Assembly: GCF_048403405.1 (NCBI RefSeq)
Contig: NZ_CP183129.1
Reading direction: 5' to 3' (one strand)
Length of the DNA: 64,000 nt
DNA from: Escherichia coli
GTDB lineage: Bacteria > Pseudomonadota > Gammaproteobacteria > Enterobacterales > Enterobacteriaceae
This document shows positions 33,001 to 36,000 of the stretch, piece by piece; within the stretch, counting starts at the first letter, position 1, and each line of letters begins with the position of its first letter. Position numbers: made by a program.

Positions 33001-36000
33001 CATTCCGTCTGGCACTAATCATCTGCGGTTGCGTCACCGCGGCGGGTGCACTGGCGTACATCTTCCTGGTTCGTCAGCCGATCAACGACCCGCGTAAAGA
33101 TTAATCTCCCTATGCCCGATAACATTTTGCTTATCGGGCATTTTTATGGCGATTAAAACGTTTCCCAGTTCTCCCCGCTATCTGCCACGGCCATTTTACG
33201 CGGCGCAGCTGGCGTCACGGTTTTTACCACAGCCGATGTTTCACGCTGCTGTTGCTGCTGTTGCTGAATCCGGAACACTGCCACAGCTTCGGTCAGGCGA
33301 CTGGCCTGCTCTTCCAGCGCGGCAGCGGCGGCGGCAGATTCTTCCACCAGTGCGGCGTTCTGTTGAGTTACCCGGTCCATCTCAGCAACCGCTAATCCAA
33401 CCTGATCGATACCACGGCTCTGCTCATCAGAAGCAGAAGCAATTTCGCCCATAATGTCCGTCACGCGGGTCACGGCACTGACAATCTCCGCCATTGTTTC
33501 CCCTGCGCTTTCGACCAGCGTAGAGCCAACATCCACTTTCCCCACCGAGTCTTCAATCAGGCTTTTAATTTCACGAGCCGCCTGGGCGCTGCGCTGGGCC
33601 AGATTACGCACTTCTCCCGCGACCACCGCAAAACCGCGCCCTTGCTCACCCGCACGCGCAGCCTCAACCGCCGCGTTCAAAGCCAGAATATTGGTCTGGA
33701 AGGCAATGCCGTCAATTACGCTGATAATATCGGCGATTTTCTGCGAACTGGTGGAGATATCGCGCATAGTCTGCACCACGTTATCTACCACTTTGCCGCC
33801 GCGTTGCGCCGTTTCAGAAGCACTTAACGCCAGATGGCTGGCCTGACGCGCATTCTCGGCGTTCTGTTTCACCGTTGCGGTCAGTTGCTCCATGCTGGCT
33901 GCCGTCTCTTCCAGCGAAGCGGCCTGTTGCTCGGTGCGCGAAGAGAGATCGTTATTGCCGGTGGCGATTTCGCTGGCACCGCTATAAATGGCATTGGCCC
34001 CGTTGCGCACATCACCGACGGTACGCATCAGCTCTCCCTGCATATGGCGCAAACTCTCTGCCAGTTGCCCCATCTCATTAGAGCCATCCACCTCAATCGG
34101 TTTCACCAGATCGCCGCCTGCAATATGACGAATGCTGTCAATCAGGCGATTCATTGGCGCTACCAACGAGGCTTTAATACCGAACCAGACGGCGAAGATG
34201 ACCGCCAGTACGACGATCATCACGCCCACCAGGATCCACATCGCCTGGCTGTAGGAGGCATTATTATCGCTGACGGCGATATCATAGAGCCGATCGTTTT
34301 GCTCCATGTAAGCCACATACTGCTTCTCGAAACCGTCCTGATATCCCTGGGTCGGCTGATCAAAGAACTCGTTGATTTTGCCTGCACCTAACAGTTGGAT
34401 CAGCTCCGCCAGCGCATTGTGATAAATATCGTAATTACGTTTGATCTCTGCCGCTGCGGCGGTGCTCTGACGCGGGTCACGCGGCAACGCTTCGTAATCC
34501 GCCCAGTTTTTTTCCGCCTGTTTCAGCGAAATACTGGCACTCTGCATCAGCTCAGCAACGGTTGAACCGCTACCAATATTATTCTGATCCATCATGTAGC
34601 GGATACCCGCGCGGTTGAGGGTGTTACGCGTCTGCAACAACGCGACCCAGCTGCCATTCAGCGTGGATTGCTGCTGGCGAATGGTTTGTAAAACAGTGAA
34701 ATTTTCTTTGTCATTCTTTAAGGCATTAAAGAACAGACCGCCTGATGTCAGTTGTAAAAGGCCAAAAACGGCCAAAACCAGCAGTAAGCTGGTCACAATT
34801 TTGATACGTTTTAACATGTTTTCTCTTTCCTGTGGACCGATGCAAGATTTTCGGCCTGGAAAGGAAAAACTTTATGAAAAGGTGTAACCCGCCATCCATG
34901 GAAAAACCAGGCGCTGGTTATCAGATATTAAAAAGTTATTCATTATCGCCCGGGATGTCTTCTTGTCGGGAATTACCCAGAGCAATAAATTCCTCTAACA
35001 GATGGGTTAACTGTTGCATTTTCTCGGCAGTAAACTGAGCTTCAATCTGCCGATAGGCCTCTTCAATCTGTGTCTGAGCGCGGTTATACAGCGCCTGCCC
35101 CTCTTTGGTCAGCGAGATATAGAGCTTCCGCTGATCATTGATCGGCTTTAATCGCAACACTAAACCGTCGCGTTCCATCCGCGTAAGGATCCCGGTCAGG
35201 CTTGGGCGCAAAATGCAGGCGCGATACGCCAGATCGTGAAAATCCATTGATGGGCTTTCCGCCAGAATACGCACGATGCGCCACTGTTGCTCAGTCAAAT
35301 TATGCCGTTTAACGATTGGGCGAAAATAACTCATCGCCGCTTCTCGCGCCTGGAGCAACGCAATGGTTAGAGAGTCGTGCATTATCTTTCCCCTGAAAAA
35401 TTCAAAATCATTAATATAGAAACAGTTAATCATCACGTTACCGGGACTGCGCTGCCCCTGCAATTCTTCATTTTATCAAAATTGAGCATGTTTTGTTAAC
35501 TTGCTGATATTTAATATTTTATTATCTTTAAATGTAAATAGTTTGTTAATTAGATCACATTTACATCACTTACTTTTGCCAAACTACGCAATCGGGAATA
35601 AAAGTAATCATTAACATATTAATGATTAAGATGATCGAATCCGAGGAGTGGTAATGAAAGGCACTATCTTCGCCGTAGCGTTGAACCATCGCAGCCAGCT
35701 TGATGCATGGCAGGAAGCGTTCCAGCAATCCCCCTACAAAACCCCGCCTAAAACTGCGGTCTGGTTTATTAAACCGCGCAATACGGTGATTGGTTGCGGT
35801 GAACCGATTCCCTTTCCACAGGGTGAAAAAGTACTGAGCGGTGCGACTGTTGCGCTGATTGTGGGGAAAACGGCGACGAAAGTACGTGAAGAAGATGCGG
35901 CAGAGTACATCGCCGGATATGCGCTGGCTAACGACGTCAGCCTGCCGGAAGAGAGCTTTTACCGCCCGGCAATCAAAGCAAAATGTCGTGATGGATTCTG

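Follow-up and report, generated by a model that had tools for sequence, protein, structure and literature searches.

The DNA analyzed here (hereafter, the window) is a stretch of 64,000 nucleotides from Escherichia coli (contig NZ_CP183129.1 of NCBI RefSeq assembly GCF_048403405.1), the minus strand of which carries tsr, the gene of the serine chemoreceptor Tsr. Within this gene, a run of seven glutamine codons (Q7) was found ahead of the codons for the pentapeptide NWETF, the docking site of the adaptation enzymes CheR and CheB. The gene, the tract with its repeat units, and the flanking segments are located in the window as follows:

33153..34817, minus strand: tsr coding sequence (554 aa plus stop), serine chemoreceptor, or methyl-accepting chemotaxis protein (MCP) I (open reading frame (ORF) list, NCBIfam PRK15041, Pfam, and RefSeq annotation)
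33267..33275, minus strand: codons F515-R516-I517, where conservation of the cytoplasmic helical domain ends and the tether is anchored (alignment of 68 orthologues, literature)
33246..33266, minus strand: glutamine tract Q7, residues 518–524, CAG CAA CAG CAG CAA CAG CAG, i.e., (CAGCAACAG)x2 + CAG (sequence, Tandem Repeats Finder, translation)
33258..33266, minus strand: first 9-bp unit, CAGCAACAG, Gln518–520 (sequence; Tandem Repeats Finder, period 9, 100% match)
33249..33257, minus strand: second 9-bp unit, CAGCAACAG, Gln521–523, missing from the alleles with four glutamines (such as K-12) (9-nt alignment gap in the 551-aa alleles)
33246..33248, minus strand: terminal partial unit CAG, Gln524, which supplies the 12-nt perfect overlap for a 9-nt slip (self-slide analysis)
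33171..33245, minus strand: remaining non-conserved tether, 25 residues (translation, alignment, AlphaFold predicted local distance difference test (pLDDT) < 50)
33156..33170, minus strand: codons of the NWETF pentapeptide, CheR/CheB docking site (translation, alignment; function from the literature)

The ORF scored 1225.1 bits with the NCBIfam equivalog PRK15041 (cut-off 947), with residues 1–554 lying on profile positions 1–554; the Tar model was the runner-up with 751.7 bits, under its own cut-off of 900. The order of the Pfam domains was TarH (PF02203, residues 1–176), HAMP (PF00672, residues 217–263), and MCPsignal (PF00015, residues 327–484). The window tsr matched that of E. coli TUM1886 at 100% identity and those of the other complete E. 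coli genomes listed at 97.5–99%, and the name tsr is the RefSeq annotation of the matching gene in 5,385 genomes. Judging by the identity of ~98–100% to annotated E. coli tsr, the window protein would sense serine and signal to CheA. The EES and LEE motifs were located at residues 492–494 and 501–503, respectively, at which we take the methylation sites E493 and E502 to fall.

Translation of the 554-aa ORF gave QQQQQQQ at residues 518–524, in agreement with the initial annotation of this DNA, which had noted a Q7 stretch on the minus strand at 33245–33266; position 33245 is the G of an Arg codon and lies outside the glutamine codons, although the span as given equals the boundary of the repeat delimited by Tandem Repeats Finder (33245–33266, period 9, 2.4 copies, 100% match). 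The plus strand at 33246–33266 reads CTGCTGTTGCTGCTGTTGCTG. This run was the longest single-residue run among the ORFs of at least 100 aa in the six frames of the window, and 100 dinucleotide-preserving shuffles of the window yielded no (YTG)7 tract, even with one mismatch allowed; the tract is thus far beyond chance. A CAA at every third codon breaks the CAG run at the 3-nt level and creates a higher-order unit of 9 bp, present in 2.33 copies. When the tract was slid along itself, the 9-nt offset gave 12 matches out of 12, whereas the 3- and 6-nt offsets gave no more than five consecutive matches. Since the 9-bp register is the only one that allows perfect pairing, slippage is predicted to add or remove three glutamines at once.

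A 141-bp query centered on the tract found matches in 5,382 of the 5,426 complete E. coli genomes, with lengths that fell into discrete classes. Allele counts were taken from BLAST identity bands obtained with allele-specific queries rather than by reading genomes individually, and are approximate (together, the classes amount to 5,385, as compared with 5,382 matches). The most abundant allele was Q7, with ~4,056 genomes (at least 95% identity; an equal number fell into the 80–90% band of another query), followed by Q4 with ~1,214 genomes, including K-12, BL21, and UTI89. Alleles Q10 and Q13 were found in 72 genomes (at least 95% identity, cross-checked in the 80–90% band; HS, LF82, and MP1 included) and in 3 genomes, respectively, and ~40 genomes carried an interrupted tract, QQEQQRQ. 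About 32–40 genomes lying outside the length classes were first suspected of carrying Q16; this was rejected, as their sequences read as the interrupted QQEQQRQ with a divergent 3' end.

Direct reading of sequences gave Q4 in APEC O78, GN05064, K-12, 042, O111:H2 12A, and 10035004-3; Q7 in the window, O157:H7, ST-131, TUM14664, G749, 2900, and O111:H2 08-3342; Q10 in HS, LF82, MP1, DEF2, 23AR0806, 94-3024, and PapRG-04-4; and Q13 in RM14723, A13, and Z1323HEC0355. Allele Q7 was also present in Nissle and ATCC 8739. All 21 pure length alleles that were read had the exact form (CAGCAACAG)n + CAG with n = 1–4, and every length allele read was in-frame and retained the full C-terminus with NWETF. 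Among the constructs in the PDB, 3ZX6 (a HAMP-Tsr chimera) has Q7 together with PATP, a combination also present in the O157:H7 allele, and 6S1K carries the K-12 Q4; structural work has thus used both alleles without comment.

A search with the whole protein returned 120 top clusters, all of them from E. coli or Shigella, in which the tract length was only 7 or 4; pure Q5, Q6, or Q8 was absent from these clusters, whereas point variants and QQEQQRQ were present, and two proteins labeled as Shigella flexneri were also Q7. Among the point-interrupted tracts, Q5HQ occurred in 12 of the 120 clusters and Q6H in one, the His codon being CAT in the one allele read at the DNA level (L105). Scanning metagenome contigs for tracts of 24–54 nt yielded five matches, all of 30 nt, one of which encoded Q8HQ on the CAT-marked background, with the added unit upstream of the His interruption. 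Tract variants differing by 3 or 6 bp were found neither in the 120 protein clusters nor in the 23 sequenced alleles nor in the metagenome scan. A junction-spanning 43-mer for Q1 had no match in E. coli genomes, and exact Q16 or Q19 was not found among the top-ranked matches of long-tract BLAST queries, which also provided a cross-check on the 72 Q10 and 3 Q13 genomes; in the queries for Q1, Q16, and Q19, the alignments split into two joined pieces, which made the identity bands uninformative for the common alleles.

The expectation of the initial annotation that the linker length varies between isolates was therefore borne out, with 4, 7, 10, and 13 glutamines in complete E. coli genomes in steps of 9 bp; a tract length invariant across related genomes, named beforehand as the observation that would speak against it, was not what these four lengths revealed. 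The reading of the tract as a slippage-prone trinucleotide run, given in the same annotation, needs correction, since this is not trinucleotide slippage: the true unit is 9 bp, all length alleles differ by multiples of 9 bp, and variants of 3 or 6 bp were not seen. The tract likewise departs from what is expected of CAG trinucleotide instability, with CAA at every third codon and no 3-nt length variants seen in the material described above.

To follow the length classes over genetic backgrounds, 23 full tsr genes were aligned, gapped columns were removed, and a single-gene neighbour-joining (NJ) tree was constructed from 90 variable sites. The length classes were scattered over this tree. With the tract masked, the Q4 allele of GN05064 and the Q7 allele of strain 2900 differed by 2 single-nucleotide polymorphisms (SNPs) in 1.65 kb, the Q10 allele of HS and the Q7 allele of O111:H2 08-3342 likewise by 2 SNPs, and the Q10 allele of MP1 and the Q13 allele of RM14723 by 3 SNPs. 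The third Q13 allele (A13) had a different background, at a distance of 9 SNPs from the other two, and Q10 was found on at least four tsr backgrounds and with both of the gene neighborhoods that occur downstream of tsr. Ordered parsimony over the 23 alleles placed Q7 at the root and required 9 unit steps, or 11 steps if Q4 was barred from re-expanding, a restriction that is mechanistically sensible because only 3 nt of homology is left at the 9-nt offset. With 9–11 changes among 23 alleles, the changes therefore recur. The tract is moderately mutable over lineage time but not hypermutable on the time scale of laboratory culture.

It should be noted that in two of the three closest length-differing pairs, one of the two SNPs was a private non-synonymous change 5–33 nt upstream of the tract, namely, E510K in 08-3342 and R516L in strain 2900. 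These changes could be coincidental or could be a trace left when the repeat was altered.

To examine the origin of the repeat, one genome for each species was scanned with the sensor domain of Tsr; this gave 80 loci, from which 67 full orthologues were extracted. These 67 orthologues from other species had a modal length of 554 aa and no glutamine run longer than three. In the slot following the conserved AVAVFRI, Citrobacter and Salmonella have QQEQQR[A/S]R, Enterobacter has QQEQMKAR, and two lineages of Escherichia other than E. coli have QQ[T/A]QQRQH; across the relatives sampled, this seven-residue slot reads QQEQQR-x and is encoded by an imperfect 9-bp quasi-repeat. The seven-residue length is therefore ancestral, and the pure glutamine run with its perfect 9-bp repeat is derived within E. 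coli and specific to it. The interrupted form CAG CAA GAG CAG CAA CGC CAG (QQEQQRQ) was present in E. coli O6:H16 and ~39 other genomes, and the pure repeat differs from it by three nucleotides. None of the ~40 interrupted genomes (at least 95% identity) showed a change in length, whereas ~24% of the pure-repeat alleles were other than Q7; this stability fits a repeat-dependent instability, the ~40 genomes representing perhaps only a few clones. The Q4 of K-12, with its 551-aa Tsr, is indicated to be a derived deletion allele.

In the interrupted alleles (L108, L109, and L110, from enterotoxigenic E. coli O6:H16 and others), 16–18 of the 42–59 differences from the window tsr fell within the last 200 nt, which suggests that the 3' end of these alleles was imported from a more distant lineage.

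As for the position of the tract in the protein, residues in the alignment of 68 orthologues showed complete or near-complete invariance as far as F515, with R516 and I517 conserved at a level of at least 90%, after which conservation ended. Residues 518–549 were variable except for the RK pair at 540–541 (at least 90%), and within NWETF the residues W, E, and F were invariant, with N and T conserved at a level of at least 90%. The tract starts directly after I517 and is separated from NWETF by 25 residues, and the C-terminus GENWETF follows the pentapeptide pattern xZxxZ, where Z is F, W, or Y (PMC7390727). In constructs of the Parkinson laboratory, residue 517 is the end of the conserved residues (PMC4692393), and the Tsr tether has been counted from I517 as 30 residues, with IQQQQRETS...NWETF given as its sequence (PMC10561060). 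The cryo-electron tomography (cryo-ET) model 8C5V includes Tsr only to residue 516, and the crystal construct 1QU7 ends inside the glutamine run. From the conservation boundary, the boundaries in the literature, and the ends of these two structures, the tract is therefore read as the first, bundle-proximal segment of the CheR/CheB tether. The flexible linker before NWETF to which it had originally been assigned is indeed the non-conserved C-terminal tether, but the tract lies at the start of this tether, beside the bundle, and does not adjoin NWETF. Counted from I517, the tether has 30, 33, 36, and 39 residues in Q4, Q7, Q10, and Q13, respectively, and, because the tract immediately follows I517, each unit therefore changes the length of the non-conserved arm bearing NWETF.

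It is well established that in-frame coding variable-number tandem repeats (VNTRs) arise by slippage between short direct repeats. We consider it highly probable that the Q7 run is such a VNTR with a 9-bp unit, the alleles of which arose repeatedly and each unit of which alters the length of the non-conserved, NWETF-bearing arm. During replication, the nascent strand would mispair through the perfect 12-nt overlap at the 9-nt offset, whereby whole units would be lost or gained, and Q4, Q7, Q10, and Q13 would be the products of such gains and losses on different tsr backgrounds. Several points weigh against this interpretation. Replicate records of one strain agree in length (four of HS and three of 8178); the recurrence is derived from a single-gene NJ tree in a recombining species, with a sample picked to include rare alleles; and the effect of the length alleles of Tsr could be nil. 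Moreover, AlphaFold continues the helix through the tract, albeit with pLDDT < 50, so that flexibility is a presumption for the glutamine residues themselves.

The last point bears on another possibility, namely, that the glutamine run prolongs the C-terminal bundle helix in proportion to its length, so that extra units move the anchor towards HAMP and the membrane. Downstream of a helix that has hydrophobic residues at i-4, a polyglutamine segment can adopt a helical structure, as in the androgen receptor and huntingtin, and Q/N-rich stretches extend coiled coils. The AlphaFold prediction (68-sequence alignment, monomer) gave a single helix over residues 435–526, but this was a poor model (mean pLDDT 62, predicted template modeling score (pTM) 0.33), with pLDDT < 50 from residue 516 and no partner chain, and the cryo-ET model stops at residue 516. 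Electron paramagnetic resonance (EPR) work on Tar, as cited in PMC10561060 and PMC7390727, describes the C-terminal segment of that receptor as unstructured. Taken together, helix extension is regarded as unlikely. A further alternative is that the tract length is under selection, different tethers tuning the reach of CheR/CheB and thereby the speed or precision of adaptation for serine, autoinducer-2 (AI-2), and other Tsr-dependent taxis according to the niche. The tether length of Tar linearly shifts the position of CheR and alters adaptation behavior (PMC10561060), truncation of the linker impairs receptor function according to work cited in the same paper, four lengths persist at appreciable frequencies, and Q10 is carried by several strains that are gut commensals or adapted to mice (HS, MP1, 8178, DEF2, and LF82). 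However, this host pattern is confounded by clonal relatedness, the effect per unit predicted from the Tar slope is small (~0.4 nm), and the near-constant length of the 67 orthologues, which have no repeat, suggests that there is little pressure towards variation; the mutational mechanism by itself would likewise leave Q1 absent and Q13 rare. Selection on length is therefore considered rather improbable.

It could also be supposed that the length alleles go back to one or a few ancient events and were later spread as a stable polymorphism by homologous recombination. E. coli does recombine, the 3' end of tsr is visibly mosaic in the interrupted alleles, the two alternative gene neighborhoods begin right after the tsr stop codon, and a Q7/Q10 pair lies inside a Q4 clade of the gene tree, where re-expansion from Q4 would be mechanistically hard with only 3 nt of homology. 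On the other hand, the length-differing pairs are only 2–3 SNPs apart over 1.65 kb, with no imported flanking haplotype around the tract; a 10-codon allele (Q8HQ) occurs on the CAT-marked background; only multiples of 9 bp are seen, as the repeat register predicts; and the ~40 interrupted genomes show no change in length, in contrast to the pure-repeat alleles. Recombination is possible for some cases and does not explain the length changes on near-identical alleles, and as a general account it appears quite improbable. Finally, tandem repeats can be misassembled, and some of the records are based on long reads only, but an origin of the length differences in sequencing or assembly is hardly conceivable: the repeat of 12–39 nt is far below any read length; exact multiples of nine occur in over 1,300 genomes, among them the reference assemblies of K-12 (Q4), O157:H7 (Q7), and HS and LF82 (Q10); replicate assemblies of HS and 8178 agree; and Q10 is carried by metagenome contigs and Q4 and Q7 by PDB constructs.

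If the tract is an in-frame VNTR at the base of the tether, as we prefer to read it, its expected effect on adaptation can be estimated from Tar, in which chains of 22, 29, 34, and 46 residues shift the position of CheR linearly, by 0.128 ± 0.048 nm per residue (PMC10561060). Applied to Tsr, this slope gives ~0.4 nm per QQQ unit and ~1.15 nm for the span from Q4 to Q13, which is roughly one spacing of neighboring methylation sites (~1.05 nm, from distances in the same paper). Extra units would thus slightly shift the likeliest location of the tethered enzymes along the methylation helices. An effect of the length on CheR/CheB tethering, as the initial annotation had envisaged, is plausible by analogy with the tether-length experiments on Tar; by the same analogy, the alleles would probably alter the kinetics of adaptation no more than modestly, if at all, and would be close to neutral. 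An on/off switch is not to be expected, because every allele is in-frame and NWETF is intact.

A more far-reaching version of this idea is that the 9-bp repeat serves as a natural tuning knob for sensory adaptation, each QQQ either changing the reach of CheR/CheB or extending the bundle helix and moving the anchor, so that the rate or precision of adaptation would differ by allele and the lengths would be selected by the host; we regard this as rather doubtful. If it were true, models of Tsr adaptation calibrated on K-12, with its 30-residue tether, would misfit most wild E. coli, in which the tether has 33 residues, close to the 34 of Tar. Should the alleles be functionally equivalent, the tract would represent a neutral length polymorphism and possibly a minor typing marker.

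These data also concern the use of K-12 as a reference. Nearly all quantitative work on Tsr has been performed on the K-12 allele, whereas Q4 is found in ~23% of sequenced E. coli, and the common tether of ancestral length is three residues longer; K-12 Tsr should therefore be taken with caution as not representative of E. coli. A published rationale states that the tether of Tsr is shorter than that of Tar (30 versus 34 residues) because its methylation sites are closer to the anchor (PMC10561060); this rationale was built on the K-12 allele, which is in the minority, whereas the tether has 33 residues in most E. coli. The natural series of 30, 33, 36, and 39 residues in available strains lends itself directly to testing the tethered-enzyme model of adaptation, and the three point substitutions that turn an imperfect quasi-repeat into an unstable VNTR provide a clean, small example of such a transition.

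Compared with known systems, the feature is an ordinary mutation-prone element, an in-frame coding VNTR, in an ordinary and very well-studied receptor. The Tsr of E. coli K-12 (551 aa) is encoded by the same gene and shares with the window protein the domain order (TarH, HAMP, MCP hairpin, tether, and NWETF) and a 29-residue stretch of the tether, whereas it has one unit fewer (Q4 and 30 residues versus Q7 and 33) and reads SEE instead of SGE ahead of NWETF; the length in the window is that of the E. coli majority and of the orthologues from other genera. The engineered series of Tar tethers (PMC10561060) likewise alters the length of the arm between the bundle and NWETF and carries the same expected shift of CheR, but it consists of laboratory constructs modified near the pentapeptide end in steps of 5–12 residues, whereas the Tsr series is natural, bundle-proximal, and stepped by three glutamines.

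With the coding VNTRs and the loci of multiple-locus VNTR analysis (MLVA) in enterobacteria, the tsr tract has in common perfect units, a polymorphic copy number, and homoplasic changes of whole units, although its copy number is very low (1.3–4.3) and its mutability modest; to our knowledge, the tract is not known as a typing locus. In phase-variable contingency loci, a repeat within the gene also changes its copy number by slippage, but the tsr tract changes the length of the protein and not its expression: the tsr alleles differ by multiples of 9 nt, with no frameshift, and NWETF is kept. The CAG/CAA polyglutamine tracts of eukaryotes resemble it in being pure polyglutamine encoded by mixed codons and polymorphic in length, whereas the tsr tract changes in 9-nt steps, reaches a maximum of 13 glutamines, and is located in the tether of a bacterial receptor. 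The searchable literature, which omits most subscription journals, yielded no description of a repeat polymorphism or VNTR in tsr, so that a prior description is possible; two apparent matches proved to be an abbreviation for a reagent and PCR targets in Salmonella with no relation to the tract.

A second repeat was identified in tsr, namely, a GCGGCA hexanucleotide in 3.2 copies (33319–33337, minus strand) encoding residues ~495–500 (AAAAAA), between residues 493 and 502. In strain TUM14664, a 6-bp deletion in this repeat results in a protein of 552 aa, while no SNP separates the gene from the ST-131 allele. The loss of two residues within the methylation helix should shift the heptad register, and the sequence may represent a defective allele or an assembly error.

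Directly after the tsr stop codon (33105–33152 in the window; compared in loci L004–L022), two gene neighborhoods were found: lgoT, encoding a major facilitator superfamily (MFS) transporter, with lgoR, as in the window, or a pair of permease genes of a tripartite ATP-independent periplasmic (TRAP) transporter. The two diverge from the first base past the stop codon, and Q4, Q7, and Q10, but not Q13, occur with both. Between the convergent lgoT and tsr, a hairpin with an 11-bp stem followed by a T run (33112–33141) looks like a shared, possibly bidirectional, putative terminator. Elsewhere in the window, repeats were found at 20065–20386 (an array with a 114-bp period in 2.7 copies, the unit resembling a tRNA gene plus spacer), at 63187–63349, near the window end (a 24/48-bp repeat in 6.5 copies), and at 7531–7685 (a cluster of imperfect 12–24-bp repeats).

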